From Tubiluchus corallicola (Eukaryota; Animalia; Priapulida), in the NCBI GenBank assembly GCA_030141605.1, contig JAQGDQ010000932.1, positions 1 to 64,000 on the forward strand: 64,000 nucleotides of DNA, written 5' to 3'. Shown here piece after piece: positions 20,874-51,500 of the stretch; position 1 is the stretch's first letter, and each line of letters starts with the position of its first letter. Below the pieces are notes generated by a model. It was given only the letters and a program-made list of their open reading frames with translations, was not told the DNA's origin and made no database searches. The position numbers and the translations under genes are program-made.

Positions 20874-21598
20874 GGCGCTATTACACTTTCGCACCGCCTA
20901 GCTTTTTCTAGGCTCGTACATCATTATTCTATTATTCTTACGTCATCAGTGAATGTTTCCGCTAATCTAATTGTAATTTAATCATATATTTAGGTATAAT
21001 TACCAATAATTACGCTGTATTCGCAGTTCTACACCTATACAGGTCGTGTCGCCATCTTGTTTGTGTGTGTAGTCACGTGACGAATTTCGTACTAGTTGAT
21101 GCATTATCAGGGCCTAGCTTAAAAGCACGTGACACACTTTCATCTTCACCGCATTTACGAAATAAAGAAAAAACCTTTACTTTTTTTATAATCTAATAGT
21201 AATAATACTACAGTAATAAATAAAATTAATGATAAATAACTGTTCCGTTCCAGGCCCACCCGTGATACGATACAAACTCCCGTAGCTGCAACCCTAATAA
21301 TCATAAAGTATGCGAAGAAACTAAAAATACTTGTTAAGGGCCACATCGTCACTGCGCGAGAGCGATTGCGCATTAGTGGTGTAAACACGGTTATTCACGT
21401 GGAGCTTTTTGCGTAATGGCGGCGGTAAGTAATGTATGATTTTAACCTGATTTTAATCTGGAATTATAAAGCCTAAAAACCTATAATATTATGGGAATAT
21501 GGTGTATATTACGCCTGTTGGTCTGCTTTCTGGCCTGCAGGCGTGAAAACAACGAATAGGCCAGGAAAAGCTAGGCGGTGCGAAAGTGTAATAGCGCC
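20874..21598 (+). mobile_element. Non-autonomous TIR element (Mutator/MULE-like), copy 1; carries the putative AGGF1 promoter and first exon
   Basis: TIRs GGCGCTATTACACTTTCGCACCGCCTAGCTTTT / AAAAGCTAGGCGGTGCGAAAGTGTAATAGCGCC. 9-bp TSD CCCTGGTTG (20865-20873 / 21599-21607). A second copy is at 44771-45506. Confidence 0.9.
20938..21430 (+). promoter_or_regulatory. Putative housekeeping-type promoter inside the element
   Basis: CRE-like TTACGTCA (~20938), reverse YY1-like CGCCATCTTG (21050-21059), E-boxes GTCACGTGAC (21072-21081) and CACGTG (21126, 21396), GCGCGAGA..TGCGCA (21353-21372), and AATGGCGGC followed by donor GTAAGT at 21425. Motif matches only; no expression data. Confidence 0.45.
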
Positions 21599-23691
21599 CC
21601 CTGGTTGTTTATGAAGAATGGGCTATGATGAGCAACTGAACTGACAGAGGTGGCTCGTATATACGTCTTTGGTGAATGAAGTCATCTAGATTGAATATCG
21701 AATCCAGGCTTGGCTTTTTATCCAGCCCAGATGTTGTCTCAAGCGCAATATGCAGACACACTTTTTTAGGATAAGAATTGTGATGACAGATTATTTCTTT
21801 TTTGAAAGTGTCAGGAAAGGTGTTGCATTGTTTTCGCCTTGTCCCTATTGGTCTTGGGGACTGAAAAGGTATCTATTCTCAGTGAGCTTAATCATTTCAA
21901 ATTAACATCTTTGACTTGCGTTACCATATGAAATTAACTAGCTATTCGCTTCATATACATTTGTGTGCTTGCAAACCAAAATCATCCATAAATCAGCATA
22001 GTTAAAACTACATTATTATGGTTCAAAGCTGAATGTACCAAAATTTTTGTCAAATGTCAATTTTTAAAAACAAACACAAAACTAAAACAATTTTTTATAA
22101 AAACAGACACTAAATATATTTAACTTTTATATTCTGGCATCAAATTATCAAGAAAATGTCCAAAAAATACTAAAAATTTAATTTTATAACTCTGTGACCA
22201 CTTTTCTGACTAGAAACTAGTACTGCAATTGTAAAAAAACTTGTATTTTCAAACTCCAATAGTAGCTCGTGGAAGCAGTCATTTTTCTTCTATTTTTTAT
22301 GTTAACAAGCCCAAATCTTCACCAGGAAGAGCCATCTACTGGATTTAAGCAAAACTTCAATGCATTCTTGCAAAGTCCGTAGCAACCATCATTTGTGCGG
22401 TTGCTAAGTGTTTTGTAGAAACACAACAATGGCTGACTTTAACATCGACTTTCTTAAGATTATATTTCAGTGTGCAGCCTGCACCTCAACTTCAACGTTG
22501 ATTATCTCAGCTTAGAAATAACATAGAGCAATGAATTTGGTATCAAAATGATCCTCATGAAATGGAGATTCTGTGAATAACTAGAAAAGCTTAATTGCCA
22601 ACTTGCCGACGATTTTGCTATGCAAGCATATATGAAGTTAACTAGCTATATGCTTTAAATATTTATACGTTATTAAATGTCGGATAAAATTAAGTACATT
22701 GAAAATAATATACATTTATATATGTGGCGTAAAAAAATGTACAGATGTTCTGATCACGACTTTATCAGAAAAAAATAACAGAATTCCAAACTAATTTGAA
22801 AATTCCTAAACTGATGTTAAAAATGCTTACATTTTAGGTCACTCCCTTATATTTTTCCAAAGATACGGTAGTTTTTAGATAGCAAGTCAAAAAATTAAAT
22901 GCCAAAAAAAATTTTCGTGCGTCACTAAATTTACAACAAATGCTCAATGCATCCACCATTTTCACTACAAACTATATAAAGGCATTTCTTCCATCAGTTG
23001 ACATAGTTTCTCACTTCTGTAAGGGGTACTTGGTCTCAGCACTCTATTGCCTTTATTTGTTTTGCACCAAAGGTCAGTGTGTGACCATCGTATACTTTCT
23101 CTCTAAAGAAATTCCAGACGCCATAATCCAGAGAATTAATCCTTTCAGTAGTTGCTTTTTAACAGGGCCGCATTGTTTTTTGCACATTGGATAATAATTC
23201 CTTGTGGTGTGTTACTGAAACAGAATCTTGTAAATAAACAAATAGTCAATTTTTATTCTTGTGAATGAGTCTTCTCCACGCATTCCTGTTGTTGACCATC
23301 TCTTCATTTATGTCTTCAATTCCCACAAGATCTTCACCGACTCTTCTTTTCAGGTGTCCATACCATCGCAATCTTGCGAGGCTTCCACTACTTTTACTGT
23401 TCCTCTGATATTATTATTTCTAATTTTATCTCTTCTTGTTATTCCCACCATTCATCTCAACGTCCTCATCTCCACCACACCCATTTTCTTCTCTTCGGTC
23501 GTCTTTAGAGAAGCTGCTTCCAGCCCATAGATTAGAGCGGGTCTGACCACTTCTTTGTGGACTTTCCCTTTATGTCTCACCGACTCATTCATAGAAGGTT
23601 CTGTCATAGTCATTTGTTATTAAACACTAATATTGAATATTAGTTTTATATATACACATGCACACAGATGCATGCACACATTAAATATACA

Positions 23692-23732
<41 letters not shown>

Positions 23733-26700
23733 ACTCAGTTTTTATCGTAACGTTAGTCTTGTGATATGTATCATATCGTGACTTAGGTACATTCTTACAG
23801 CCCCAGTTACTGGTTTGCTATAGAAATCTCTATTCAGCAGAAGCATTATGTCTGTAGGTAATGGTGATCAGTTTTAACATGGAAGACGGCGAAATTGACG
23901 TTGAAGATATCTCTTCCTCGGTACGGCGTCTCCACGACGAAATCAGTAGCTTAAAGGCGGATTTGTCGTTTGCGCAAGAAAAGCTGAACGACTATCAGCG
24001 CTTGTACGACGAGGCAAACATTCGTAATGACGGTTTACAGCAGCAGGTATCGTAGATTCTGAGTTTAAAACAAAAGCCAAGTCACTCGGAAAGTTGAGCT
24101 TATTTTAATATCTGGGAAAAACGTTAGAAAGTTTTAGGAATAAAATAAACGATAAATGCCTTATGTAATTAGCAAAATCAGTAATTTAAAGTCGTCACTT
24201 TACGCTTGGTCGCACCCATTTTAGACGGAAAATGGCCTCATCCGGTTTCCGTGCAATATAAACACTTATCCCGCCAGGTGCTTCAGAATGTTTTTTAACT
24301 TATAGAGCGAACTCTGTAGACTAAGTAACCAGCCCGGCACCTACTACGTGCTGGCAAGTTTACATGTATATTTAAAAGTCAACAAAATTATTTACACAAT
24401 TAATGTTAATTACTTACACATTTTAAGGTGTAATCCTGTAGATCAAAGCAACGTAACCACCTTAAATTTGATCATATTTGATCGAATAACTAATTTCTAG
24501 ATAAACTCAGTTAAACACAACATTAGAATAACGGAATTTCTAAGCAAACTGTAGACATTTTTAAACGCATACCTTCATACAGGTTGCCTTCACGGCATTC
24601 CCGCTGCCCAGCAGACGCCAGCTTAAGTCAGTTCATTTTGGCGGGAGATAAGAAATATTTAATATTTAAATTTCTTTTACTGTTTTAAAAGAGCATTCTC
24701 TGCACATATATTTTGGGATGATTTTAATAATTTTAATTGTACATTAAAATGCAGTAAAAGTTCCTCAAGGGTTGGTTCTGCCTCTAAAGTCTGTAAAAAA
24801 AACTTTTCTTAGCTTGAAATGGGGAAACGAAATTATGCTGCATATGACGGCATTAAACTGCTTGTGGTTTGTTAGGTGGAGAGACTTCAGAAGGAATTAA
24901 AGTGCCACAAGTCTCTTCCTGTAAGTACCAAAGATGTAGCTATACAGAATGAAGATCACGAACAGGAACAACCGACATCGGAAGCTTCAGATGAACCAGT
25001 TCTTAATAATTCATACTGGAGTCAGGCAATTGGCGAAACAGTAAGTTTTTATTTAAATTTTGTAGTAATGCTTTATGCTTTAGGCTGGCTACAAAAAAAT
25101 ATTTTTGTCTTACCTCATGAGCTCAAAAGATATCCGTAAGAAGGGAGGAATTTTTTAAATTTTTTTTTCAAAGCTGTGTGAATGTTTAAAGCTAAGTCGT
25201 GAAATATTTAAAATCAGTTGAAATCAAAGTTGGTTTATTTCCCCCTGTGTAGCAGTAATGTTTTCAATTTTTTCAGTACCCCATTTCCTGATTCGTTTTT
25301 TAGTTTCGCATTACTAAGTTATCGTATAATTATTCTATAGCTTCTTTTTTGTATGCTGAATGTATGTGTTACTAATTATGTTATAGGCGGCAACACTGCT
25401 TGGTCATTAGTACTCCAGCTTGGCGAAAAATTCGATATTTTTAAGCCTCCAATGCAATGAGCATATTACAAAACGGCAACCCTGGCTGAGAGTTACACGT
25501 GGAAAAACATGGCCGTGTGTTGCGTTCCACGGAAGAACGACGTTTTAATGATTATTACATTTTTTTTCACATTCATTTTAGGTATCAATAGCTGAGAGTC
25601 TTAAAGCCACAGCTGAAGCGGCTGTACTACAGTCTGGTTACGTTTACGATGAGAATTCCGGGTTGTATTATGATTATAACACTGGATGCTATTACGACTC
25701 GGTAAGATTGCTCATGTGCATTTTTCCCTGTAGTATTCCATTTTTGCATAAAACCAACTGAGTTTATGCTGTTAGGTTACTGGTTTTCTCATCATTTAAA
25801 GGAAAATAGTACGATTTTTCGTATCACATCCCCTCTTGAAGTACAGTAATAAATATACGTTTTAACGCCCATAATACTGCCATTGAAAGATTTGCAATAA
25901 TTAAATAATAGGTTAAAAGCTTAATTAACGTCCGGTAAGTCCAATTGTTGATGACATCACAACTGAACATAATTTTCAATTGCACAAATATTCCACGAGT
26001 GTGTTGCACGTGTTTGTGAAAGAGAAAATTGAAGTACAGTGCTACTGTAAGATATTCAGTGTGTTGTACTAAAACTAGGCAAGTTTTAAGATAAAAAATC
26101 AAATTTCAAATTTACCACTGTGCTCACGCATGTGCTGTCGAATGTGTGTAGTTCATCACAAACTAACACATCTGAACTGAGAGGTACAGCACCCGTTTTT
26201 GTGCAGTGCATTTCCGACAGGTACAGCACAAACATTCCACGAGCGTGTTGTGCACTTGAACTTGCAAAAGTGGAAATTGAAGCTCAGCGCGACTGTACAT
26301 GATTCAGTGTGATATAAAAAAACTCTGCGAATTTAAAATTGAAATATTGAGTTTTTGATCCTCTCTTCATATTTGAAATTCTGCAAGATAACTCAATTTT
26401 TGCTACACGAGGCGAATTTCTTTTCGATGTTATTGAACAACAAGCGAGAACAGAAACAATAACTTTCGCTATACTTTAGGAGAGAGCCTTGTATTACGAT
26501 CCAAGGACTGGCGCTTATTATACTTACGATCAGAGCGGGCAGACGTACCTTTTCCACTCGCAAGTTCAGCTTCCTTCTTACTCGACTGTGAGTGAATCTA
26601 CCTACTCGCATCATCAACGCGATGCAGAGTCACGAAATCCCGTTACTGCAAAGAAGACGAAAAGTGTGCATTCGGATGAGGTACGTTACTGAATTACACA

Positions 26701-29700
26701 AGTCTTACTGGTCATTTTTATCGTATATATTAATTTTGCTGGTATGGGCTTTATATACATATATAAGATTCGAGGCTACAGCTCCGACGGTGGCACCATT
26801 TGCGGCGATCTATACATCAGACGAAAGGTCTCGATCTAGTGTCATGCCATTGGGGGATTTTTTTCGAATCGGGCTCACCGGGACGAACAGCGTGGCCAAA
26901 AACCTCCAAAAATGGCCATTTTTCGGCCGTTTTTTTGCAAAACTTATACCTCTTATTTCTGGAGAACCGGAATGGGCCATGGGTGGTGCTGGCCAAGGAT
27001 AGATAGCCCGTTCAGCGGTGGGTGTAGCAGCAGGCGTATTTAGAATTCACGAAAGGGCCATGGCGTCATGCAACGGGCATTTTCCCGAACCCAACTCGCG
27101 ATTTTTTTCGAGACTTTGCTCACATTGGCTCTAGAAAAAACGTTCTAGCGGCGCCTGGCGGGACTCTCGGAAGAAGATATATAGCTTTTTAGAAAGAGGA
27201 AGAACAGGGCTACACGACGATGTGGGCTACATTTTAGGGCAGGTCCACCTAGAGGAGTGCCGATGAATTAATTAGATGTTCTATTTTTGGCAATTTTCGC
27301 TTGGAAAACTGCTGACGCAAAGCCATTGTTCTGACGTCATCCATTATACGCTGTCTATAATCTTATAACTTTAATTCGGCAAAAGCTGCTGCTGCTGGCA
27401 CTGCGTTATGAGGACTATGTAGGATGTTCGCGTATTATTGATTATAAGTGTATTTATATGCAAAATTTTTGCGGGGGCTTTGCTAGTCTTTATTATTACG
27501 ATGCATTTTTCCGCTCGTCTAGTAAGCTTACTACTACACACATAAAACTTGAAGTGGGATGAATAGCTGAGTGGTCATGTGTATATGCTTCATGACAGCT
27601 TGACTTCAGTACTTGCTGTGGGTGGGTTCATTTGTCATACTGACTCTGCTTTGCCGAGGAACAGTGTGTATGCATCCAGCCTGCTTAAGACTCTTCTGCT
27701 GGTTCAGTGGCTCATCATTGCAATATAGCTTTGATATTGCACAAGGTTCCAGTACTTCCACAACCATTCCATTGAACGATAGACACTGGCTTGCTGTGTG
27801 ATGAGTTGCATAAAAAATGTAATTTGACGAGTGCCATCTAGTTGAATAGTATTATTACAGGTTGTTGTCAACTTCAATTAGGGGTGAGTATTCTCTACCA
27901 CAAAACGAATTCGAACTGAGTTTAAAAAGATTTTTGAACAAGTTTTTGAGCCACCAGTACGAAGATCATGCATATTGCCCGATTTTGCTCCGTCACTAAT
28001 AATTTGCCTGAAAATTGTGCCCAGAAATCGCAACTTAATTGTGCTAATTGCGTGATGTTTCAAACGTTTTGATGATAAAGAACATATGCGGTTAAAGTGC
28101 TGAATAATTCGAATCCATAATTTTAGGTTAGAATCGAATTCGAACGTTCGATGCTCACCCCTGCTTACAACCTACGCAACTTGCGACTGTTTGACTTTGC
28201 GACCTGATCACCACTCAATTAATTACTTATTCGAAACCAACTATAATTCATATTTGCTTCTGTTTTTTCAAACAAATTAAGTTTAAATCTTCGTCTTGCG
28301 TGTAGAGGCACACCACTTGAATATACATTGTGTCCTTTTCTCTTACAATCAAGTCGCTAGAGCCGATTGTGGTTTGAAGTTGACGACTAACGACAATCTA
28401 TATTTCCTTTTTTTGTCAATTGTGTGCTTGCACAGCAAAATCGTCCTTAAGTCATCAATTAAGCTTTTCTAGTTATTCACATATTCTGAATCTCTATTTC
28501 ATGAGGATCATTTTCATACCAAGTTCATCACTCTATGTTATTTCTAAGCTGAGATAATCCATGTTGAAGTTGAGGTGCATGGTAGGCCCTGAAAAACATA
28601 ATCTTGTGGAAATCACTGTTAAAGTCAGCCATTGTTTTTTGTTGCGTCTCTACAAGATACTTAGCAACCGCATGAAAGTGTGGTTGCTGCGGATTTTACA
28701 GGAGCAAATTGAAGTTACTTTGAAATCCAGTAGATGGCTCTTCCTCGCGAAAATCTGGTCTCGTCAAGAGAAAAAACGGAAGGAAAATGGCTGTTTCCAC
28801 GAGCTACAATCGGAGTTAGAAAATACAAGTTTTTTTACAATTGCATTACTAGTTTCTAGACAGAGAAGTGGGTAAAGAGTCATAAAACTAGATTATCAAT
28901 ATAGTTTTATAAAAAAAAATATAAAAAATCGACATTTTACCAAATATTTGGTGCTTTGTACTTTGAAGCATCTTAACTTAGTTTCAACTATGCCGACTTA
29001 TGGACAGTTTTGGTTTGCAAGCACACAATTGGTTTTTTGACTTTCACATCATCCCACTTTTCAATTGTCTATCGTGTGTGTAGTGACTAAATGTTTATGC
29101 TAGTTTATTTTTGGGGGGTCTTTATTACACTGAATCGCATACAACTAAATCGCTGCATTTATTTATTAGGCAACGTTGAGCGATATTACGGGGAATTTAA
29201 GGAAGCTGTCTCTGCAACACGCTGCTCGGGGTAGGGATTTTTCACGTTTAGATGTACTACGACAGAAAGAGTGTGTCAAAACTTCTGATCATTGTTTATT
29301 GGGTGTCTCAAGAATTTTACAGCTAAGTTTTAGCTGATTCAGCAATTTTACAGCTAAATTTTAGCTGATTCAGTAATTTTACTGCTAAATTTTAGCTGAT
29401 TCAGTAATTTTACGGCTAGATTTTAGCTGATTCAGTAATTTTACGTCTAAATTTTAGCAGATTCAGTAATTTTACAGCTAAATTTTAGCTGATTCAGTAA
29501 TTTTACTCCTAAATTTAGGCTGATTCAGTAATTTTACGGCTAAATTTTAGCTGATTCAGTAATTTTACGGCTAAATTTTAGCAGATTCAGTAATTTTACA
29601 GCTAAATTTTAGCTGATTCAGTAATTTTACGGCTAAATTTTAGCTGATTCAGTAATTTTACGGCTAAATTTTAGCAGATTCAGTAATTTTACGGCTAAAT

Positions 29701-32700
29701 TTTAGCTGATTTAGGAATTTTACGGCTAAATTTTAGCTGATTTAGGAATTTTACGGCTAAATTTGAGCAGATTCAGTAATTTTACAGCTAAATTTTAGCA
29801 GATTCAATACTTTTACAGCTAAATTTTAGCTGATTCAGTAATTTTACAGCTAAATTTTAGCTGATTTAGGAATTTTGACACAGATTTTCTTCGATAATGA
29901 TGCTTAGATGCGGATGTCGGTTATCCAGTGCGTGTTGTCTTTCCAAAGACCACATTTCATCCTAGCGGAAAATCAATTTTTTAAAATGAGATTGATTGCT
30001 GGCAAAGAGCCAAGGATTATCAACAATTCATTGATTAAAATCAAATATCTGTTTCTTTTAAAGTGCGTTACTACCGTTTTTTACGCCAATTTGAGCAACC
30101 ACAGACAACACTGATTGGTTAATCGACAAAGTCCATCCCCATCGCCCGTAGTAACCGTAAGTAACCGATTTTCTTTTTTTACTCTTTAGGGAGATAGGAG
30201 GAAGGAGAAACGAAAGATAGATGAAGCTAGACTGACAGCACATGAGACATCTAGTGGCCAGAACGGAAAACTTAAAACAGTAAAATGGAAAAATGACTTT
30301 CGAAAACATAAGAGACGCTTAAAGTCAATAGAAAATAACGACATAGTTAAAAGTGAATTAGATGCTGTGACCTCCAAATGCGTGGACATAGATTTCGATA
30401 GAAACGGTACAAGTAAGAAGAAATGTGACACTATTAGCACAGCACATGAGACATCTAGTGGCCAGGACGGAAAACTTACAACTGCTAAACGAAAAAAAGA
30501 CATTCGAAAACATAAGAGGCGCTTAAAATCAATGGAAAATAAAGACGTAATTAAAAGTGAATTAGATTCTGCGGCTTCTGATGATGTGGATGTAGGTGAT
30601 GATAGAAACAGTGCATGTAAGAACAAAGATAGTAGCATTAGTGAGGTTTTAGCAAGCGAATTACAAGATACAAGTAACTCGGATAGTGAAAGAGAATCAT
30701 TGGAAGAAGGTGAGTGTTCCTCAACTACAGACAGCAGTAGTGACGACAGTGATTGGAATCGTATAGAAACCATCAGCGATGGCGCACTGTCCGAGGAAGA
30801 TACAGAGATGGCAGAAGATGCTGACGGTAAGTTTTTTCTTTTTTTTTGGAAATTTCATAATTGTAGCTAATACATTTTGCAAGTTCTTTCGATAATCTCA
30901 GAAACATTCCACCCACTGTCTTTTCATTACTTGGCTCCACAATTTCAATACGAAATGCTGTTAAAAATCGTTTTTCATAGAGCAGCTTCCCGCTTGAAAT
31001 TGTTTTGAAACTAAAAAAGTTGTTTAGTGCACCTCAGTGAAGCTTTAAGCTGATTCAGTAATTTTGCAGTTAAATTTTAGCTGATTCAGTAATTTTATGG
31101 CTAAATTTTAGCTGATTCAGTAATTTTGTGGCTAAATTTCAGCTGATTCAATAATTTTACGGCTAAATTTTTAGCTGATTCAGTAATTTTATGGCTAAAT
31201 TTTAGCTGATTTAGTAATTTTGCAGCTAAATTTCAGCTGATTCAATAATTTTACAGCTACATTTTTTTTAGCTGATTCAGTAATTTGACTGCTAAATTTG
31301 AGCTGATTCAGTAATTTTATGGCTAAATTATAGCTGATTCAGTGATTTTTGCTGATTCTTACTGAACTGCTTTTCTTCTTACATCTTACTGTTGCCCAAG
31401 CTTAAAGCACTAGAAAACCCTCCACTTACATAAAACTGAAAAAAATTTGTCTTGGAATTTTATACCACTTAAGTGATTACCTTATTGCGTGCAGGACTTG
31501 TGTCGACAAGTAGCGCTGTATAAAACTTGTTAATTTAAACTCCCGGGCTGACCGTTAGATGCAGCCATTTTAACAAGAAGTCATTTGAAATGAGTTTAGA
31601 CAACATTGAAAAAACAATCAGGGCATTCATAACACATGTTGCTAATTAAATAAAATTTTAAATTACTGTGTCTTGTCAATAAGTTTAAAAATAAGTTTTT
31701 AGTTATCGAGTGGCGCGCCCTGGATGGTGAGTCAGCGACATTTTACCAATTGGCACGAACATTTTAAATTGTTATTTGTAGTTACGTAAGTCTTTCTAGC
31801 AGTTAAGCGAAATGCTAAGTAACACAATTTTGCATGGAAAGTTTTTTGGACATAATTTAACATTTTCTTTTCTTTCTCTGATTCACCTTGCGCATATATG
31901 ACATCATGTAATGGCGACTTCAGAACAATATTGCAGGAGATTTAAAATGAAAACATACAAAAATTCCTTTCAACACGAGCACAATATGTGCATAAAATTG
32001 CTGTCAAGTAGTATAATTTTTAAAGCGATTTTTCTGAAATCTATTTTAGGTGCCCCCTTTTCTTGTCCTTTAACTTTTTCAGAGCCCGAAATTTTCTAAA
32101 CTCTATCATTCGAACAGATACAGGAATGTAACATACTTTTTTAGAATTGTCATCGCAATGGCCACCATGCATACGGGTAATTGTCAAAATGGCGGAAACT
32201 GTCCCGCTTGGCACGCTGTTCATCATCACGTGTACCGGAGCAAACATAGGAAGAGAAAAATCCTGTCTAGTCACCATTCCAGAACTTGGCATTAGCAAGG
32301 TGTGCTTCACTTTTAAACATGGCTTTGACTTAATGAGTTACTTTTTCGGGAAGCTAATTATTCCTAAAAGATTGTTTTTGTTCTTAACTCGGAATGTGGC
32401 TTTGTAATATGTAAGTGTAGGCTTATGAAATGTCTGCTTAAGTGTGGAGGTGTCTGCCAGGTTGTGGAGTCGGTTCATTAAATTCCTGACTCTGGCTCCG
32501 ACTCCGACTTTTACTCCGACTCGTAAAATTTTAGGAGCCGCTACTCCCGACTCCAACTCCGGCTCGCGCTAAAGAGATTTCCCATATTTCTCGTGGCAAA
32601 TGCAAAAACAAAGTGAAAGTAGGAATGCAAGTTGCATAGAAAATAAAATTCCAGGAAGAACTTCTATTAAGGTCGCGAAAAGCTGAAAAATTCTGCTTAG

Positions 32701-35700: not shown

Positions 35701-35734
35701 TTGTCTAAATTATACTACTACTAGTACTACTGTG

Positions 35735-35799
<65 letters not shown>

Positions 35800-35849
35800 C
35801 ACTACCACTACTATTACTACTACCACTACTACTACCACTACCACTACTA

Positions 35850-35943
<94 letters not shown>

Positions 35944-36029
35944 CACTACCACTACTATTACTACTACCACTACAATTACTACTACCACTACTACTACCAC
36001 TACTACTGCTACTACCACTACTAGTACTA

Positions 36030-36117
<88 letters not shown>

Positions 36118-36125
36118 CACTACCA

Positions 36126-36198
<73 letters not shown>

Positions 36199-39100
36199 AC
36201 TACTGCTGCTGCTGCTGCTGCCGCCGCCGCCGTTATTATTATTATTATTATTATTATTAAAACTATTATACTTTTGATGAAGATTGATAGTGCACTACTT
36301 TTCATAAAGATGAATGACATCATCGGAAGAAGAACAGGCTTGTTTCATTCATTTCATTAGTAAATTTTCCATTTTTAGACATAGTGGTTTTGTCCACGGC
36401 CGATAAAGATCGTTTACGTAGGTTGCAGCTAAAGCAAATCAAGAAAAGATATGGACTAAAGGCAAGTTCTTTTTTCTTTTTCATTATTTTTTCTTTTTTA
36501 TTATTCCGGATTTTTGCAGGATGTGGTTTTAGTAGCTATTGTTAAACCAATAAGCCTATTAATCTCTTCACTTCCATTCACTTAGTATTGCAGCAGGCGT
36601 GGAGGACATTTTGCAAAAAGGAAAACTTGCCACTGCTACATGCACTTTTACGGATCACAGATTATAGCAACTTTTGCCTCGTCGCCATCAGTTTTACTGT
36701 CACACATCACTGCCACGACCACGACTGTCGACGCCGCCCATATTTTCCACTGCTGCCACCATCAGTTGCTGTCCACTGCCGCTATGGCGAGTACCACCAT
36801 TTTCATCAGCATCTTCGTCACGCTGTTTCAAAAGTAGTTTTTTTTGTGGTACAATTCAAAGCATCTTGCAAAATGTAGGTGTAAGGAAAGGGTGAAATTT
36901 TGAAGGATAATTTGATACTTTAAAGGGGGAGAAGCTCTCAATGTCTGAGGTTCCTGAATTACCGTCCCTTTAGTAACCAAAACTGAAAAAGCTTGAATAA
37001 AAAGAGATACGTATTTATATGCAGACCACTGTACTTACTTTTCTTACCAATCTACGGCCATGTCACGTTGAAAACACCAGTTCTCGTCTGATCACCGAAG
37101 TTAAGCAACGTTGGGCCTGGTTAGTATTTGGATGGGTGACAGCCTAGGAATACCAGGTGCTGTAGGCTTGCGAGATGCCCACACTGCATCTCGACATTAG
37201 GCAGAAGAGCTGCACAAGCAGCCAACGGCTGGAGGGCGGAGGAGGTCAAGTAACCCAACAACCATGTGTAGAGTAAGCCTTTCAAAACAGGAGTGGAGCC
37301 CCGAAGGTGGGCCAGTGCAACATGCTCACTGACTCCGGCAGATCCTGCAGCCAACCTGGTGCCAAACGTATCTCTCCGCTTTCCTTTGGACTACACCAGG
37401 GAGGAAGAGAGGGGGTTCCTGTTGTCTGGGCAACTCAAGATCTCCATACACCTTGTCCAGGCATGCGCCCTGGAGAGGCCACTCCAGTGGTTCAAGGATC
37501 GGATTGTTCAGCCACAGTCGATGCTGCAGCTCCGTTAGTGTGATCAATAACTGACTCTCTTGGCGCACGCTTCATTGTCTTTCTTCCGAGACAGAAGGAT
37601 GCCAACAACCATACTTACTTGCGTTTTAAATTGCTAGAAAAGGAGAAACAGTTAATTGCAATACTAACATATATATTTTGCAATATTTACATACACGAAC
37701 ACCATCAATAACAGTGTAACAAACAAACAATATTAATTGACGTGAGCCTAAACATTTATGAAAACTAATCTTAGATACGTCATCTAACTAGGGTAATGTT
37801 CTGCGTTCTCTAACACACAGTATCTACACATTATGAGCGATTTAGTTTGGCAGAAGGCTGTTATAACATACGTTAAATATCTAAAAAATAGGTTAGGTAC
37901 AAGTTTAAGATCACGTATGTCATGGAAGGTCAAAATTACATATGAATGTGGCTTCAACAACATTATGACACTTGCAACAGTCCACGACAATAGGATGAAG
38001 AGCAAGTCACAACACAGCACACTGCAGTGCACATTCAATAATAACAGCAATCTTTTCAAGTTTTGCCAACGTTTGGCTAGAGGGATTTTGCGGCTTATGT
38101 ATTAACTTTTTGGCCGATAGAGGACAGCACCACTGTAGTAGGCTGACTCATGGTGTATGCAGGGTATCATTGTTACTTGCGCATGTTTCTGTTAATTTGC
38201 ACATGAAGTATGATGGCACAGTCTTGTCATTTAGGCAGTGAAATGGTACAAGAGAAAATTTCATATTTGATTCCAGTTTTCTTATGAAATTCACATTGGT
38301 GTTAAACATATTTGCCAGCGACTTTACTCTAAAGACGGTGTCGTTTTTCATTAGTTATATTTAAATATGTTATTTGCACTTGGATTTTTTAAGCAGAAAC
38401 GGGGGCGTATCGAGACTTTGCGATGCCCCAGGCTAATCAAACAATTACTTGTGGCGTATTAGAAATACTATTAACCTAATTTCTACATGGTCATTATTAA
38501 TTGCATGCATTTGGATAGTGCTTATATCCAAGCAGCCTATGCAATACTTTGAGTAATACTTTCCACCTGTTCCTTATGTGGCACTTATATAACAGCTTCT
38601 CTCAGTAAGTGCCTGTGGTGCGTTATAAATACGTCCTTTACATGAATATAAAAGTATACGCATTTTCCGAGGAGAATAAGAATTTTTGCTAAATGTGCCG
38701 CCCTGAAATTTTTGCGCCCTAGGCTATAGCGTATTGGTTAATATGCCTCTAAGCGGAAATGGAAAACATTTCTGATTAAAAACAATTTCTATGTAATCAG
38801 GATGCTGCGTATGTTGACGACACACCAGCTATTTCCAAGTTGGGCTACAAGGACAAAGCAGAGGAAAGACGCAAAGAAAAGGGAAGCGATAACCCGCATA
38901 AGATAGACGAGGCCCCCTCTTCCATTGATAGGTATGTTTTGGTTGAAACTTACTTGTTTAGCTAGTGAAATTAGTTCATCACAGCGATCTTCATCATCAT
39001 CATCTCCGGAGTCAGTTTGATGAAGATTGCTGTGAAGTAATTTCACGTCCTCTGACACGACCTTTGCTATCACTTCAGACCACATTGTCCAGTCACCCAT

Positions 39101-41164
39101 AACTTCCCATGTCTCTGTATTTTTGATATCTAATGGTTAGTTGTAAGATCTTTTTGGATAAAAGTGATGTAAGTCAGCAGCTGTCCTCCTTGTGGTTTCT
39201 TTTCTTGCTGCAGTGCTTCTTTAAAAACTAGTTTTCATGGACTGTCATCTTGTAGTCGCATAATATGTCCTATCCATCTTGATCTTCTTTTTGATTTTAA
39301 CTGTCCCGTGTCCATCCCTCTACCTTGACTTTATTATGCAGATTTTGGTTTGATATTTTCTTTGGCCATTTTATTCCTAGAATGTTCCTGTAATTTCTTC
39401 CTTGAAAAGCATCAATTTCTGATTTGTGTTTTGCTTTAATTGTCCGTAATTCTGTGTCTTAGAGAAACACAGTTTCCACAAGTGCAGCAAAGATTCTTAA
39501 TTTTGTATCTAGACTAATCCTCGACTTTCAAAATTTTTTGTTAATTTACAATATGCAGCTAGAGCTAAGATTTTTTTTTCTTCACATATCTTCATCTGTT
39601 GCTAGGAGACAGTCTTGCAAGAGCAAGAACAAAGTGGTTATGAATGTTTTGTACAAATGATCTTTGATATTTTCTTATCACAGGCATCTTTCCACTGAGA
39701 ACAAGGGTTTCAAACTTCTGAAAGGCATGGGCTGGAAAGAGGGCGAGTCTCTCGGGAAAGGAAATGTTGGCATTACGGAACCGGTAATCACCTTTTGTGG
39801 TTTATTTATCAACAGAATTTGACAATTACTCGATAAGTTTAAGACGCGCTTGACCCAGAGAGTGAAGCATTTTATAAAAACGTTCCATAAAAACATATCG
39901 AGCGTTACATAAATAATAATATCTCTTTCATGTTTATTTACTGATTCCTTCTTTATGATTTTTGACTGGGAGGTATATAGCAACTCCTCACTTAACAACA
40001 CTAATGCGTTCCAACCGAATGCGACGTTAAGTGAAACGCCGTTAAAGGAAACTAAAACTTTCATAGAAAGAAATGTAAAAGAATTGAATTACGTTCCAGA
40101 GGCAATACCAATCCTGCTTAAATCATATAAATTAAACATTTTACGAGTTTCTTTATGATTCCTACTAATTATTTTTTTTCTGCTTGCTTGAAATCACCAA
40201 TCTTTCGTACCAATATGTACCTAGTTTGCAGTTTCTCTTTCATTAAGGTTTAAGCCTAGGCAGCCATTAAACAATAAGCACTGCAGAGTCAAAGCCAAGT
40301 GCTGCATGAGGCGACCTTGGAAATTTTATCATACCAGAGTACTGTATCATTTACTACGTAGTCTGGTTGCTATAGCAACAGGTTGCAGGAAGAATTCCTT
40401 CCCACAAAGTTTGTTCACACGCCTCGTTTGATAGAAAGGGCAGCTAGTATAGTAGTCAGTCTGGAAGGAAAAACATGTATAAAAATTACACTGTTTATGT
40501 TACTGTTGCACTTTTAAATGAGAGCAACGCAACATGTGCCATTTTAATGCTTCAATTTAAGCAAAAAAGTTGTTGATAAAATGAAAATTGGGTTTCAGCA
40601 AAGTAAAAAAATGTTATTAAAATGAAACGTGTGTCGTGAATTGAGAAAAAGGTGTCGAACGTTCAGCGTCGTCAAAACAAAATGACTCTAAACGGGGACT
40701 TGGCTATATGTAATTTTTACATAGTTGTTTAAATCAGTTGTAAATGTTTTTATCCATTTCTGCTAAATGTTCTGTATTTTGTACTAGTTTTCTTGTATAT
40801 GATTATATGACATATCATATATTTCCTTTAAGTGCTACATGCAGCACAAACACTTCACCTTTTCTTGATATCGTTTTAGGTAAATGTTGCAATGAGGACA
40901 GGTACCGGTGGTCTGGGGTCTAAGGCGTCTGTTAAACTGTCACTGGACAACGTGCGTAGTAAATCGAAAGCCGAAAACTGGGCCCGAGCTAGAGCGCGTT
41001 TCGAAAAGCTGACCGGCGTTGAACCAGATGGTGCTGATGGTACTCCGTCAGGTGCTCCAAAGTCAGAGCATCTTGTCGACGAAAAAGATGTGGCGACATT
41101 TGCAGGGAGAGGCGATAGTTCCGCAGTGGCAGGGAAGTTGGATGTGTCAGGGAATTCTTCGTGA
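21416..41164 (+). CDS. AGGF1: Angiogenic factor with G-patch and FHA domains 1 ortholog (~780 aa)
   Basis: Exons: 21416-21424 (putative; an alternative start is at 23861), 23858-24046 (coiled coil), 24876-25040, 25582-25701 and 26480-26680 (OCRE: SIAESLKATAEAA..GYVYDENSGLYYDYNTGCYYDS..LYYDPRTGAYYTYD), 30190-30826, 32145-32299, 32925-33026 and 35219-35384 (FHA: WPPCIRVIV..GANIGRE..ISKVHAEV..DCGSQNGTFLN..LTHGDVLRLG..CNECEPGQV), 36379-36461 (GC donor), 38801-38931, 39684-39783 (G-patch: NKGFKLLKGMGWKEGESLGK), 40880-41164. All phases are consistent; total 2343 nt. Confidence 0.93.
21962..22630 (+). mobile_element. MITE with TGTGCTTGC..GCAAGCA(C/T)A ends; inverted copy at 28421-29027, partial copy at ~50375-50720
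   Basis: Terminal inverted repeats and long internal identity among the three loci. Confidence 0.8.
23260..23600 (-). mobile_element. Truncated copy of the short RTE element at 33144-33646 (twister head absent)
   Basis: Reverse complement of ~33260-33600, near-identical, with the same internal junctions. Confidence 0.85.
26762..27367 (+). mobile_element. MITE with TATAAGATT..AATCTTATA ends
   Basis: Short TIRs; related copies at 13385-13850 and 49382-49660. Confidence 0.75.
27879..28162 (+). mobile_element. hAT-like MITE (AGGGGTGAG.AT..ATGCTCACCCCT) rich in TTCGAA; longer copy at 34620-34997
   Basis: TIRs and shared internal sequence. The TSDs are degenerate. Confidence 0.7.
29310..29876. 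repeat. 31-bp minisatellite (TTCAGTAATTTTACGGCTAAATTTTAGCTGA)n; second array at ~31048-31350
   Basis: About 18 and 9 tandem units respectively, flanking AGGF1 exon 30190-30826. Confidence 0.95.
33144..33646 (+). mobile_element. Short non-autonomous RTE-clade retroelement (5' UTR fused to ORF 3' end, (GAA)n tail)
   Basis: Peptide RLKGKVHKEVVRPALIYGLEA..EMRMLRWMVGITRRDKIRNDNIRG is a typical RTE C-terminus. (GAA)n tail. 17-bp TSD AGTTA(C/G)ATAAGTGCTTC at 33127-33143 / 33647-33663. Confidence 0.9.
33145..33225 (+). ncRNA. Twister ribozyme (3' cleavage-product form) at the 5' end of the RTE element
   Basis: AAC-UUA-GC..CCGGUCCCAAGCCCGG-AUAAA-UAGG-GAGGG matches the twister core. P2 is CUUA/UAGG, P3 is CACUGGG/CUCAGUG, P4 is CCGG/CCGG, and the pseudoknots are UCCC/AGGG and GC/GC. 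Confidence 0.85.
35712..36258. repeat. (CTA/CCA)n microsatellite followed by (CTG)(CCG)(TTA) runs
   Basis: Direct reading; source of the poly-T and poly-V ORFs. Confidence 0.95.
37050..37609 (+). mobile_element. 5S rRNA-derived SINE (SINE3-type), full-length copy in an AGGF1 intron
   Basis: 37050-37169 is a complete 5S rRNA-like head with internal A and C boxes, ending CTGTAGGCTT without a T4 terminator. It is followed by a ~440 bp body and a CAACAAC tail shared with 19167-19512. Confidence 0.9.
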
Positions 41165-41550
41165 CAAAGCCGTGGAGTGACATTCACATCTGTGTTGTAC
41201 GTAGTGCTTTGTGACAAAGCCGTGGAGTGACATTCACATCCGTGTTGTACGTAGTCCTTTGTAACAAAGCCGTGGAGTGACATTCACATCCGTGTTGTAC
41301 GTAGTCCTTTGTGACAAAGCCGTGGAGGGACATGCACATCCGTGTTGTACGTAGTCCTTTGTGACAAAGCCGTGGAGGGACATTCACATCCGTGTTGTAC
41401 GTAGTCCTTTGTGACAAAGCCATGGAGTGACATTCACATCCGCGTTTTACATTGTGCTTTGTGACAAAGCTGTGGAGTGACATTCACATCCGTGTTGTGC
41501 GTAGTGCTTTGTAACAAAGCTGTGGAGTGACATTCACATCCGTGTTGCAC
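41161..41550 (+). repeat. 50-bp tandem repeat (~8 units) overlapping the AGGF1 stop codon and 3' UTR
   Basis: Unit GTGACAAAGCCGTGGAGTGACATTCACATCCGTGTTGTACGTAGTCCTTT. The TGA at 41162-41164 lies in unit 1. Confidence 0.95.
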
Positions 41551-43509
41551 ATAGTTATGCACGATAGACCTGCAATGTGTTAAAATAACAGATCACAAAA
41601 AGTGCTTAAGAATGTGCTAAAGGTTATTACTATTTAGACAAAATAAAAAATTGCATTTAAGAAAACTGAAACACAAATTATTACTTTATGATTCTAGACA
41701 TTTGAAGCAATTCTAACCATTTTAAAATATTAACTAATTATTAAAGTAGGTGGTGACTTACATTTACTGGTGACAACTTTGTCTTGAAAATACAACTAGT
41801 GACTGTTAAATTGTGACAAAATAGTCAAAGCAATGCAAGTATCACCAAATGGCATGATCAGCATAGCGGCAACAAAAATCGTAACTACGTGTAGAAACAA
41901 CTGTGATTGATAGGTGGCGTATACTACTAAAGCTTAGTTCACATGACCAAGGCTGGCTTCGTTTTAAACACTCAGGAAATGCACTTTTGTAAAAATGCGA
42001 AAATAAAACAAATAATTATAGAATAAATTATAGAATTGCTAGATTAAATTGCTTGACACCAACAATTAGACTTATGGTAACGTAGAATCAATCCCCTAAT
42101 TGTCACAAAAACATCTAGTACGGGTCGCTCCTGATACAAGCTACACACGTGTCATTACACGCTGCTTGGTTCCTCTGATGTACTGATGTAAACAAAGTGA
42201 CGCTCCGGCAACTAGTGGTCAGCTCTCGAAACAACAGACTTTTCCGTAGTATGCGTGACTTTTTAAGGGTCCAGATTTGTCCAATTTTCTGATACCTGTA
42301 AAAGTGAGGTCTGGCAAACCGAGATATGAGTGTATTTGCAACATTATAATAGTGACCATATTTTGTATTGGAGCGCATGAAGATTTCAATTAACATGTGT
42401 GAATTAATTACTAATTGCCTGTGAAACGAAGCGATCTTGCAATTTATAAATTGCAAAATGCTTCTGCTATTATAATTCTTATCTGTCTCTTCTGATTTGC
42501 TTCTTATGCGGTTAGTCTTTCTTACTGTTTTGTTTTAGGTTTGTGTGAGTCAATGTCAACAATTGGTGTCTGGCTAGTTATGCCACTTGTGTAAGAAAAC
42601 TTTGTATGTGATTCAGAAAATTTGAGGCAATAAACGATTTTTAGGATAAAGCTGTAATAAAGATTATAAAAAATTAGAACAATTACCTAAAAGCGCTAGA
42701 TCTGAAAAATCTAGGAAAATCTTTGACATGTGTCTCTTATCAGTTACTAGGCAACCAGTTGTTCATTTCAATTCATGCCATCTGCGAAATGGAGAAGTCT
42801 AGATGAAATCTGTAGGGTAGACACCTGCAATATATGGGCCGAGATAAAAAACCACCGACCAAAACAGGAGCCGAAATGTGAAAATTAATGCAAATGGCTT
42901 TACCGCTCAAGTTGTAGCATTAAGTAACTCAGAAACCAGAAATTAGTTGCTAGTATCATGCACATTGGTTAGTCATGCTTGAGCGTAATAGTCTACAAGT
43001 ATTGACATGAGTTTACCACACCTGACCAGGTATAGTCAGACGTAAACACGACCACGGGTTTATGCTCGCAGATCTGAATTCATTCAGTCTTGTTTCTGCT
43101 TACTTTTGTCTGAACATAAATTTGTAATACCACTAGATGGACGATCGAATAAGATAATTTTTATACAAAAAACATGTGTGACTATTTTGTCTCAATGAGC
43201 TGTCAAAATCTGAACAGCAGATGGAGAGATCAATGTTTATTGCAATTCAACAGAAAATGATGGTGGCAACAACAAATGCACAAAGCTGGACTTCTTGCTA
43301 ATTCTTCATATGGTGTTTCACTAAATTTTTAATGCTTGTGGCATGATAGATTGCTAATTTGTTTCAAGGCGCGTAAGCTTGTTCAACTGAAAATTGTGTC
43401 GCTTTCTAAATAAATTACAGGTTCGTTGTAACAATGATAGTGACAGTTCTTAACAAATGATGTTCTTTTACAATTATAGGATATTTTACAGCATGTCACT
43501 AAAACTAAC

Positions 43510-44085
43510 ACTCTGGAATGAACAGTAAGCAACAATAATGACATCATAATTGGAAGAATCAGTTTTAACATGTTTCAAAAGCTTTTTGGATTAAAGTTGC
43601 TTGTTATTAAACAAAAACCCTGAATTATTATTATTTATTTTGCCGTAATTATTATAATCATTTCAACCAATTTAACTTATTACCGCCTCTGATATTTAGA
43701 GTCTGGAATTAATAGTAAGCAATAATAAGGACATCATAATTGGAAGAATCAGTTTTAACATGTTTCAAACGTTTTTTTGGATTAAAGTTGCTTGTTATTA
43801 AACAAAAACCATGAATTATTATTAATTATTTTGCCGTAATTATTATAATCATGTCAACCAATTTAACTTATTACCGCCTCTGATATTTAGAGTCTGGAAT
43901 TAATAGTAAGCAACAATAATGACATCATAATTGGAAGAATCAGTTTTAACATGTTTCAAACGTTTTTTGGATTAAAGTTGCTTGTTATTAAACAAAAACC
44001 ATGAATTATTATTAATTATTTTGCCGTAATTATTATAATCATTTCAACCAATTAAACTTATAACCGCCTCTGATATTTAGAGTCT
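43510..44085. repeat. ~190-bp tandem repeat x3
   Basis: GTAAGCAA.AATAA.GACATCATAATTGGAAGAATC recurs at ~43525, ~43716 and ~43906. Confidence 0.9.
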
Positions 44086-44770
44086 ATGGTCTCAGCCCCA
44101 GGTACATTTGCAAAGTTTATATATTTTGCCAACAGGTGGCATAATGAGCTGCTAGCTAGAATTCACGAGGACGGCAGTATTACCCGCATTGCTAAATTAA
44201 ATTGTGACCAGTGTTTGTGTGTTTCACGAAATTAGGATTTGATTTCCAGTTTTTATTTAAGTACAGAACTTTTATGGGTAAGATGCTAGCAGTACATACT
44301 AATAATGGCAGCCTCTTAAGATGTGTCAGCGTGCACTGGGTATGGAGTGTGAAAAAGGCGGCAAACGTACTTATAAAAAAGTTATATTAACTGATGAAAA
44401 GAATTTGTGGTAGTCAAAACTTAAGTGAATGTATGCAATATAGAAAGAAGATGAACAAACACATTAAGGTGGTAAAGGACAATTAAAAGATGCGCATTTG
44501 AAAAGAGAGTTTGCACCTTTAGGTGCCACTCATTATCAGGCCCTAGCTTAAATTGGGGCAAAAGCTCTAGTCGAGAATCGCATTTTACTGTGGTGCTTTT
44601 GGAACATACCGAAAAAGTAAAGCTGTGAGACAGATGTAAACAAAACTTGCAGCATTGCTGACTAATTTGAGTCTTCATACTTTCGGACAAATGATAGGTC
44701 AAGAATAGGACTGAAAGAACATGCTTACAGTCTTCGTAACTGTTAATGAAATAATAATAGCAAAAGTTGG

Positions 44771-45506
44771 GGCGCTATTACACTTTCGCACCGCCTAGCT
44801 TTTTATAGGTTATTACTCGTTTTCAGGCTCGTAAGTCATCATTCTATTATTCTTACGTCATCAGTGAATGTTTCCGCTAATCTAATTGTAATTTAATAAT
44901 ATATTTAGGTATAATTACCAATAATTACGCTGTATTCACAGTTCTACGCCTATACAGGGCGTATCGCCATCTTGTTTGTGTGTGTAGTCACGTGACAAAT
45001 TTCGTACTAGTTTATGCATTATCAGGGCCTAGCTTAAAAGGCACATGACACACTTTCATCTTCACCGCATTTACGAAATAAAGAAAAAACCTTTACTTTT
45101 TTTATAATCTCATAGTAATAATACTACAGTAATAAATAAAATTAATGATAAATAACTGTAGTGTTCCAAAATAATTTCCCGCGGTACGATACAAACTTCC
45201 GTAGCTGCAACCCTAATAATCATAAATTATGCGAAGAAACCAAAAATACAGGTTAAGGGCCACATACGTCACTGCGCGAGAGCGATTGCGCATCAGTGAT
45301 GTAAACACGGTTATTCACGTGCAGCTTTTAATGGCGGCTATAGGTAAGTAATGCATGATTTTAATCTGGACTTATAAAGCGCAAGAAGCAATAATATTAT
45401 GGGAATATGGTGTATATTACGCCTGTTGGTCTGCTTTCTGGCCTGCAGGCGTGAAAACAACCAATAGGCCAGGAAAAGCTAGGCGGTGCGAAAGTGTAAT
45501 AGCGCC
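44771..45506 (+). mobile_element. Mutator-like TIR element, copy 2; carries the putative promoter and first exon of the RWD-like gene
   Basis: Same TIRs as 20874-21598. 8-bp TSD AAAGTTGG (44763-44770 / 45507-45514). Internal ATGGCGGCTATAG|GTAAGT at 45331-45349. Confidence 0.9.
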
Positions 45507-48500: not shown

Positions 48501-51500
48501 ATTTTTGTAAATCGCGTAAATTCGTTGAGAAATTTTTTTTACGGACCCAGTACATTATTTCACAAGCTGACTGCTAGTTGGCAGGCCGTCACTTTGTTTA
48601 CATCAGTGTAACCACGTGTGTATCTCCATGTATAAAAAGATATTATCAATTGTGCATAGTTATTTGAGTCAATTGCAGACAGTTTTTATATACTTTTGCA
48701 TAGGAGCGGCCAGTACTTAGGCGTTTTTGAGACAATTTGGTATCGTGTATCCTTGATAGTTGGATATTTTGAATTATGCATGAAACAAGGTAATTGATAT
48801 TTTAAGTCCACTTAGAGGTTATGCATGAAACAAGGTAATTGATATTTTAAGTCCACTTAAAGGTTCTCTGTGGCTTGCGCAGCCCCGAAACCCCCGGCCT
48901 GTTTCAGAGTTTTTTGCAATTTGTCATTCTCATCCCTGGGCTAAAGTGTTTCCACTGCAGTGGAAAAAGCTTGGACAACCTTTAATTATTGGTTTTGATG
49001 ATGGATTTGTTGCAGCAGGAAGAACAGGTAATAGATATTATCATGCTGCATTGTGGGATGTCCGATGCTGCGATAATTTTAGTGTGCGGATCGTTGCTAG
49101 GATACCACCGGAATTTTCTATCTTCGTCGTAAAACTATGACTGATTGTGACGCACTGTTTCAGATAGAGACAGGTTCATTGACGACGAACTTGCAGAAGT
49201 GAGAGAAAAATGCACGGAAAAGATCGACAGCACAAGCGTTGAAGCTTGCGTTCCCGCTATGGTCAGAGTACGAATCAGGTAGCTGTTTTACGCTACTCAC
49301 GTTAAAAAATCAACTAATGCTAACATGTAAAATCGTATATATTAATTCTATTGGTATGTTATATATATTAAATATATATATATATAAGATTCGAGGCTAC
49401 AGCTCACACCGGGCCCACCGGAAGGAATGGGGGGGGGGCAAAAAACGTCCAGAAATGGCCGTTTTTTTGCAAAAGATACCACTGAGATCTGAAGAACGGG
49501 AACGGGTCATGGGTGGTGCTGGCTATGGATAGATAGCCCGTTCAGCAGTGGGTCCAGTAGGTGTATTTAGAATTCGCGAGAGGGCGAATTCGCGTCCCGT
49601 AATGGGCATTTTCCCGGACCCAACTCCGGCTTTTTCGAAATTTTGGTCAAACAGCCTGCAGAATTTAAAATAATAAGCAATTCAATTCCATTCGTTTGTT
49701 TGTCTGAGTCTTGTGATCATATCACATTACAATATATGCTGCTTTAATACATTAGGGATGCAGAGAAACAGGGCGGTGAAAAATCTCATGGTTGCTGAGT
49801 TGCTCCACCCCTAACTTAAACATAACTGTAAATTGTAGTGGCAGAAAAATAAGTAAAATTTGTGAAGAAGTTGTTTTAATATTATATACTAATTGAAAAA
49901 CAGTGTACGCACACACACACACACACACACACTACCACACCCATGCACACGCATACACACATGCAAGCATGCACGCACGCACACACTCACACACACACAG
50001 AAGCATGCACGTGCACACACACAAGCATGCATGTGCACACACACACGTGCGCGCGCACGCACACACATACAAGCATGCATCCACACACACACACACAAGC
50101 ATGCATATATATATATTTTAGCTCTTCCTTAAAGAATTAAAATCGATAATAATATAATTGTTAGCAATCGCTAGTCATGCTCTATAGTTTACAGTGTACA
50201 GTTAAGTAAAATATACAAGAAAAAAGGTAAATTCAGCCAAGCTGTATAAGATTTTTTTAGACTAACATCTGTAACGTATTTCATACCGTCAATGTAAAAG
50301 TTTAATAAACCAAATTTAATAAGTCAATGAGCAAAGATTTTGGAGAATTCGAATCGTTGAAATCTTTGAATATATGCGTGCTTGCAAACCAAAATCGTCC
50401 ATATGTTGGCAAAGTTAAAACTACGTAATGATGCACGCATTTTATGTAATGATGCAGTGCAAGCAAAGAGAATGCTTCAAGGTAGAATGCACCAAAAATT
50501 TGGTTAAATGTCAATTTTATATTTTTTTATAAAACACAGCGCTAAATATATTGATCTTTAATATTCCAACATCAGATTGTTAGCAAAATGTTCAAAAAAT
50601 ACTTAAAAATCTAATTTCTCAACTTTTTTGTCTGGAAACTAGTACTACAATTGAGAAAAACTTGTATTTTCAAACTCCGGTAGCACCTCGGGGAAGCAGC
50701 CATTTTGCTTCGGGTTTTTTCTGTTGCGAAAAAGTAGTATCTCTTATTTGTAGGGCTTCGGATCTAACACTCGAATTCGATTCGGGCGAGTTTTTTTTAA
50801 TTCAGATGCCATTCGGGACTAAGATAGTGAATTCGAATGATTCATTATTTCAACTACATGCAGTCAAATCCTCGTTATACAGCCCCCCCCCCCCCCATAA
50901 TGCCAGCCTCGTTTCATGCCCAAGCTTTTGGCGAAACAAAATGTCTATATTTGCATTTTCATGTATTTGTTACTATTAATTATTATTAATGCACCTCGTT
51001 TTTGTTAAGTCCCTGAGTGTGGTGCTATAAAGACGTTTGATTGTATACCTCTTTATCATTAAACCGTTTGAAGCAGTCCTATTTATAACAACTTCTCTGC
51101 GCAATTTAAAGTGTAAAATCGAGAAATATTCCAAGCTGTTTTAAGACTGTCTTTTATTAGTGAGTCAGGAAGCTTTGATGATTTGGAAATCTTTAAAACT
51201 GAATTTGATTTGAAGAGAGAGGAGAGAGAGAGGGGGAGGGAGAGAGAGGGTGGAGGGAGAGAGAGAGATTGAGAGAGAGAGAGAGAGAGAGAGAGCTGGA
51301 GGGAGGGTTTGAGAGGGGGAGGGGGTTGAGATTGAGAGAGAGAGAGGAGGGAGGGAGGAATTGAGAGAGAGAGAGAGGGAGGGAGGGATTGCAAGAGAGA
51401 GGGAGGGAGGGATTGAGAGGGAGAGTGAGGGAGGAATTGAGAGAGAGACAGAGGGAGGGATTGCGAGAGAGAGGGAGGGAGGGAGTGAGAGAGAGGGGGA

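Follow-up and report, generated by a model that had tools for sequence, protein, structure and literature searches.

Whether one transposon family can supply the promoter, start codon and first splice donor of two adjacent, unrelated genes is the question raised by a stretch of Tubiluchus corallicola DNA (contig JAQGDQ010000932.1, positions 1 to 64,000 of the forward strand; this stretch of 64,000 nt is referred to below as the window). Two copies of a short element with terminal inverted repeats (TIRs) are situated there, one upstream of AGGF1 and the other upstream of a gene for a protein with RWD and RING-like domains (the RWD-RING gene). An earlier note on this DNA considered the element to be a mobile promoter and first-exon cassette recruited by both genes. 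The reading favoured here, at a probability of roughly 0.55, is that the element brings with it an inherited gene head and inserts near gene starts, and that both genes keep their own start codons; the element would then be at most a possible extra first exon for either gene.

Two insertions of one element

Copy 1 occupies 20874..21598 (725 bp) and copy 2 44771..45506 (736 bp), both on the + strand, 2.26 kb before position 23858 in AGGF1 and 3.66 kb before position 49164 in the RWD-RING gene, respectively. Each is bounded by perfect, GG-starting TIRs of 33 nt, which are identical at all four ends and can be extended with mismatches to about 58 nt. The target duplication of copy 1 is CCCTGGTTG (9 bp; 20865-20873 and 21599-21607) and that of copy 2 is AAAGTTGG (8 bp; 44763-44770 and 45507-45514). 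It is apparent that the spans, TIRs and common orientation had been described correctly, and the different duplications bear out the claim that the insertions are independent. No Pfam domain was matched by the open reading frames (ORFs) of the element, and Rfam gave no match over 20700-21800 at E 1. Its shortness, TIRs, target duplications and lack of coding capacity are those of a non-autonomous TIR DNA transposon of the MITE (miniature inverted-repeat transposable element) type.

Such elements occur as multiple dispersed copies, which here are represented by the two insertions with different duplications and, in addition, by the depth of contigs from a same-species DNA run (X1). These contigs were compared with the copy 2 region only, the copy 1 junction lying outside the comparison. 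On the unique flanks they carried 0-4 differences at a depth of 7-11, with patchy cover of unique DNA (depth 0-2 at 44090-44617). Over copy 2, by comparison, they piled up to a depth of 827-2517, and single listed positions of copy 2 had depths of 381-1472. Depth is a rough guide only and not a copy number; read in that way, it would place the relatives of the element in the genome only roughly, at tens to low hundreds. No third copy was found in the window with blastn or nhmmer, and patterns for the TIR or an internal motif gave 0 matches in metagenome contigs and 0 in viral contigs.

Between the copies there are 39 substitutions over 709 aligned bases (94.5% identity) and 7 indels. The earlier note had them differing especially at the short exon described below. 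The densest block of substitutions is elsewhere, however, at 21224-21273 (10 in 50 nt), and the placement of three of the seven indels within 26 nt has a simulated P of 0.11. Since the four TIRs are identical alongside 5.5% interior divergence (P 0.024), the copies are likely to be insertions of different mobile sublineages that already differed before insertion. The identical TIRs beside diverged interiors, together with the perfect duplications, suggest that both insertions are recent.

A promoter-like interior with start codon and donor

Splice donors were scored with a generic matrix, alongside 12 reference donors (a thirteenth missed its exon end and was dropped). For acceptors, the training set of the matrix consisted of 11 others from the window, whose leave-one-out scores ranged from -0.6 to 8.3, and percentiles were taken against the 3548 AGs in the window.

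Copy 1 contains a mini-ORF of 3 codons (21416..21424, + strand) that ends at a phase-0 donor (GT at 21425, 6.5 bits), and copy 2 one of 4 codons plus 1 base (45331..45343, + strand) that ends at a phase-1 donor (GT at 45344, 6.4 bits). These starts, donors and phases agree with the earlier description, as do the pairings: junctions from copy 1 to AGGF1 and from copy 2 to the RWD-RING gene are in frame, and the swapped pairings are out of frame. The donor of the element is the sole GT above 6 bits among 523 in 14100-23857 and, again, among 495 in 41200-49160. ATGGCG within 8 nt of GTAAGT was obtained in 0/1000 shuffles and is found nowhere else in the window; start codon and donor are carried in a single orientation, as in a promoter cassette.

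Ahead of the mini-ORF lies a CpG-rich, putatively promoter-like core (21240..21415, + strand; CpG observed/expected ratio, o/e, 1.4, or 1.5 in copy 2), which follows an AT-rich spacer. Across this spacer, about 360 nt from the other ATGGCG, is a left-facing YY1-like ATGGCG site (21047..21081, - strand; ATG at 21055, or at 44970 in copy 2), immediately preceded by a palindromic E-box. The best donor after it scores 0.1 bits, too low to be usable. The two outward-facing sites resemble a two-way promoter. YY1-, E-box-, CRE- and NRF1-like motifs had been claimed for both copies, and this claim survives in part. E-boxes are enriched, the count in copy 1 being reached in 0/1000 shuffles, and the YY1-like ATGGCG count is modestly so (22/1000), but the CRE-like (233/1000) and NRF1-like (208/1000) motifs do not exceed chance. 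With its E-boxes, outward-facing ATGGCG sites, ATG and strong donor, the element looks like a portable gene 5' end.

It could be argued instead that the interior is no promoter, that its motifs are transposase-binding or chance features and that both insertions are inert. The chance-level CRE- and NRF1-like counts accord with this, as does the CpG-rich core, which is not diagnostic because ordinary exons here span a CpG o/e of 0.34-1.69, so that the ratio fails to separate promoter from exon. An internal 22-mer of the element, moreover, has CCTAGCTT in common with the TIR. The shuffling results for the E-boxes and for ATGGCG beside GTAAGT, the absence of that pair elsewhere in the window, and a donor and acceptor that are co-oriented at intron distance nevertheless make an inert interior highly improbable.

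A predicted acceptor within the element

That acceptor, which is identical in both copies, scores 4.9 (top 0.8% of AGs), against 1.8 for the acceptor at 49164 and -3.9 for that at 23858. It sits at the inner edge of the extended (58-nt) right TIR and would define a predicted intron of 116 nt in copy 1 (21425..21540, + strand) and of 105 nt in copy 2 (45344..45448, + strand). The interior thus appears to read as a promoter, a short exon and a whole intron of 105-116 nt, truncated at the start of exon 2; this layout is what would be left if a parent element had lost internal sequence or if the head of a gene had been captured. Splicing of copy 1 in this manner would lead to a stop after four codons.

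The acceptor region is predicted to be paired in a stable fold in both copies (z -3.7 in copy 1; z -3.8 in copy 2, with the AG in a hairpin stem), and 0/200 shuffles were as stable. Part of this fold may merely reflect the subterminal repeats.

Copy 1 and AGGF1

The + strand gene at 23858-41164 is AGGF1, as had been stated: OCRE and FHA matches were obtained on exons in the window, and further exons, including the G-patch, were found by tblastn with four long homologues. The first coding exon (23858..24046, + strand) encodes a coiled coil that aligns to the homologue P0019, with 0/300 shuffles scoring as high, and two in-frame ATGs of its own, at 23861 and at 23879, stand in a good context (purine at -3, G at +4). 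Judged from this exon, AGGF1 appears to need no upstream ATG from copy 1. The AG before 23858 had been taken as the acceptor for the element's donor, a role that its score of -3.9 does not support: it lies below all 11 reference acceptors, 41% of the 3548 AGs score at least as high, and 58 AGs that do so are located between the donor of copy 1 and 23858. Because the exon has its own ATGs and a poor acceptor, the phase match of copy 1 is weak evidence. The figure of 1 in 9 given earlier for a chance double match does not apply, since the AGGF1 phase is not a match that was needed.

A word search found no close AGGF1 relative. A profile search gave 10 matches, of which 4 were long, AGGF1-like and dissimilar to one another at the N-terminus, and exon 23858 aligned significantly with only one of these 4; for these reasons the start of AGGF1 is not fixable by homology.

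These data bear on a model in which both genes would draw their promoter, start codon and first donor from the family, the phase being tuned to each, and in which the family would play this part widely in the genome. The model would account for the sense orientation, top donors and in-frame junctions of both copies, for the out-of-frame swapped pairings, for the indels that copy 1 has of its own around the ATG and donor, and for the E-box and ATGGCG enrichment. We consider it unlikely, however, in view of the acceptor at 23858, the ATGs of AGGF1, the value of P for indel clustering, the perfect TIRs and duplications, which suggest that the copies inserted recently and have had little time to be tuned, and the native candidate exon of the RWD-RING gene described in the following section.

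Several repeats were observed in and around AGGF1. Of a 345-bp inverted repeat (23259-23603 and 33258-33602; 96.5% identity), one member falls in the gap that separates element copy 1 from the AGGF1 exon. The long exon at 30190-30826 contains an internal duplication of about 70 codons and lies between two tandem arrays of a 31-bp unit (29313-29876 and 31048-31349). At 36462, after an exon matched by the homologue P0017, there is the donor of a GC-AG intron (AAG|GCAAGT), and a 50-bp tandem array (41161-41547; 7.7 copies) starts exactly at the stop codon.

Copy 2 and the start of the RWD-RING gene

The gene from 49164 encodes an RWD and RING-like protein, in keeping with the earlier RWD-like label, and the relative P0001 matches five of its exons at 79-96%. 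Exon 49164..49278 (+ strand; acceptor score 1.8) is preceded by an in-frame stop, five codons upstream, and the alignments with relatives begin at its first codon; it was therefore right to conclude that this exon needs an upstream phase-1 start. P0001 and P0009 start with Met-Asp-Arg, such starts being the choices of gene callers, and an exon ending in ATG-G before an intron is therefore predicted.

The sole site of that kind in 41200-49160 is 44274..44277 (+ strand), an ATG and one G followed by a donor of 3.6 bits, 500 bp upstream of copy 2. Five of the 12 reference donors score lower. According to X1 depth, patchy here (0-2 at 44090-44617), the site is in non-repetitive DNA. Spliced to 49164, this candidate native first coding exon would give a Met-Asp-Arg start 5 residues before a conserved motif, exactly as in P0001 and P0009; copy 2 spliced to 49164 would give 8 residues, three more than in the relatives. 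A site as good was present in 8/300 simulated intervals, and a search of both strands (128 kb) gave 44274 and no other. As a caveat on this candidate, there are eleven further short phase-1 candidates with scores of at least 0. If the exon at 44274 is real, copy 2 would lie in intron 1 of the RWD-RING gene.

A less likely but fair possibility is that copy 2 is a working first exon of this gene, alternative or main, with its donor skipping a hairpin-masked acceptor and with AGGF1 not needing copy 1. Exon 49164 is unable to start itself, and copy 2 has the top donor of 495 GTs, the right phase, a cost of only three extra N-terminal residues and an internal AG that is predicted to be paired; there is also a precedent in HelibatN3 (PMC4778049), discussed below. 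The exact match of the 44274 candidate to the relatives argues against it, as does variation in X1. Copy 2 has private changes at four listed positions, where X1 agrees with copy 1 throughout its depth; one of them (45045, all listed X1 depth having the other letter) removes one of three E-boxes. The 1-nt deletion of copy 1 at 45266 is present in X1 at depth 127 of 1472; a 4-nt deletion at the donor is absent from the 12 indel rows shown of 87, the X1 variants being drawn from the listed rows of longer tables. These rows hint, weakly, that the phase-1 form may be the common form of the family, and not a fit to the RWD-RING gene. One X1 contig, at depth 301, skips 45224-45404: a derivative without core, ATG and donor is itself abundant.

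Very high-copy repeats (48314-49017; X1 depth 3,300-20,000) were observed directly upstream of the RWD-RING exon. Another run, X2, presumed to be RNA, gave 8 records in the copy 2 region; all of these fell on other repeats and none on the element or the exon, which speaks neither for nor against use of the copy 2 donor.

Proposed origin of the element and its bearing on the two genes

The favoured explanation, that the element carries an inherited gene head to gene starts and leaves both start codons in place, may be set out as follows. A non-coding cut-and-paste transposon with an ATG, a strong donor, a predicted acceptor and a likely promoter would have inserted twice, separately. Its interior probably derives from the 5' end of a parent gene, either a transposase gene or a captured host gene, whose promoter, short first exon and whole first intron, cut at the start of exon 2, would have been joined to the right TIR. 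Both insertions would then have gone into open chromatin where a gene begins: that of copy 2 probably downstream of 44274, in the first intron of the RWD-RING gene, and that of copy 1 either ahead of AGGF1 or in an AGGF1 leader intron. The matching donor phases would be incidental, and minor spliced read-out from the element into a host exon would be compatible with this scheme. Of the cassette claimed earlier there would thus remain the portable gene 5' end; the internal acceptor, the ATGs of AGGF1 and the native candidate at 44274 had been overlooked.

A number of observations weigh against this explanation. In neither upstream interval does any donor outscore that of the element, and no strong native donor for an AGGF1 leader is apparent, the next best scoring 4.4 (at 23073) and 5.3 (at 16252). 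The phase of copy 2 is that required by the RWD-RING exon. The ATG at 44274 has T at -3, as does that of copy 2, and the DNA upstream of it is not CpG-rich (o/e 0.6). The predicted fold could free the donor from the internal acceptor. If copy 2 is spliced internally, its ORF continues into the flanking DNA and would reach a stop without meeting a phase-1 donor above -4 bits. No transposase was found among the 94 window ORFs scanned of 175 listed, and no parent gene in the window. Finally, both copies lie in sense to adjacent genes, a placement that, on a rough estimate, random insertion of about 100 copies would seldom produce. On that estimate, and in a window chosen for this pattern, the placement suggests that the family is targeted to gene 5' ends or retained there.

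In its strongest form, the contrary proposal would be that a still-mobile family serves as a plug-in gene head with a hairpin-hidden acceptor, of which phase-fitting sublineages have been retained and adopted by two adjacent genes as first exon. This is unlikely. Were it true, ordinary genes would be having their first exons replaced or supplemented by one young transposon family, invertebrate promoter turnover could be counted directly, and the masked acceptor would amount to a built-in exon-trap design. Three junctions compete: 45343^49164, 45343^45449 and 44277^49164.

Relationship to known transposons

The best reading of its ends is that the element is Merlin- or MULE (Mutator-like element)-like and non-autonomous. 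Non-autonomous Merlin elements are reported to have TIRs of 24-462 bp ending in GG and target duplications of 8 or 9 bp (PMC8101967), and the 33-nt, GG-starting TIR and the 9- and 8-bp duplications of the present element agree on both points. The element differs in that no IS1595-type transposase (DDE_Tnp_IS1595) is linked to it within the window, none having been found among the 94 ORFs scanned, and a superfamily assignment is tentative; promoter donation by Merlin was not encountered in that source (PMC8101967). MULE TIRs are reported to be typically >100 bp with subterminal tandem repeats, the TIRs of 12 of 14 Aedes families being long and those of 2 being under 60 bp; MULE derivatives and Pack-MULEs, of which Aedes Muta1NA is an example, show 8- and 9-bp duplications within one family, non-autonomous forms with host fragments and a genic-region bias (PMC5225508). 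The earlier assignment to Mutator is therefore upheld by the duplications, which fall within 8-10 bp, but not by the TIR, 33 nt when perfect and about 58 nt when imperfect. The short GG-ended TIRs and 8/9-bp duplications appear to fit Merlin at least equally well.

If used, the element would work like the promoter-donor cassette of HelibatN3, which in Myotis bats comprises a promoter, six codons and a donor, acts as an exon trap in cells and numbers about a thousand copies (PMC4778049, PMC4224331). Both are non-autonomous DNA transposons with a promoter (putative here), a few N-terminal codons and a splice donor. HelibatN3, however, belongs to the rolling-circle Helitrons and retains just a portion of intron 1 of its donor gene, NUBPL (PMC4778049, PMC4224331), whereas the present element has TIRs, target duplications, an apparently whole short intron with its own acceptor, and a second, outward-facing ATGGCG. 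Transcription is reported to start inside HelibatN3 in 3 of 23 genes with its promoter within 1 kb of the start (PMC4778049), and this low share is counted in favour of the retention of native starts proposed here. The animal Pack-TIR element Ssk-FB4 is likewise a TIR element with the 5' region of a gene, made multicopy by transposition and chimeric with its neighbours (PMC8277862). The present element resembles it in its TIRs, multiple copies and candidate gene 5' region, and differs in that its exon is no longer than 3-4 codons. A literature search at the level of titles and listings, most subscription papers lying outside it, showed no case of adjacent invertebrate genes that take their start codon and donor from a TIR family.

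Other features of the window

A search of the window, and of it only, for a parental source of the interior gave one 22-nt match outside the copies and nothing else. This match (44531..44552, + strand; 1 mismatch; blastn E 9e-4), 220 bp outside copy 2, corresponds to the internal motif at 21102 in copy 1 and 45017 in copy 2, which has the above-mentioned sequence in common with the TIR. With GGTGCC ahead of it (44522-44552), it resembles either a solitary end from a related TIR family or a motif shared with host DNA; a partner on the minus strand was not found within 5 mismatches. The DNA beside copy 2 was rejected as a source of the interior, nothing aligning beyond the 22-mer and scores being at background level.

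To the left of copy 1, and running away from it, is an annexin gene on the minus strand. Service of this gene by the left-facing ATG of copy 1 was considered and rejected: no donor above 0.1 bits follows that ATG, and annexin already has an ATG in its exon near 14590. The annexin region includes a 2.5-kb direct duplication (2087-4574 and 8653-11143; 98.6% identity) with no Pfam match in the ORFs scanned. Upstream of the first coding exon of annexin, at 15650-16300 on the + strand, is a fragment of a reverse transcriptase of the LINE (long interspersed nuclear element) type (RVT_1, E 1e-6), which adjoins a Thr/Ala-rich triplet repeat.

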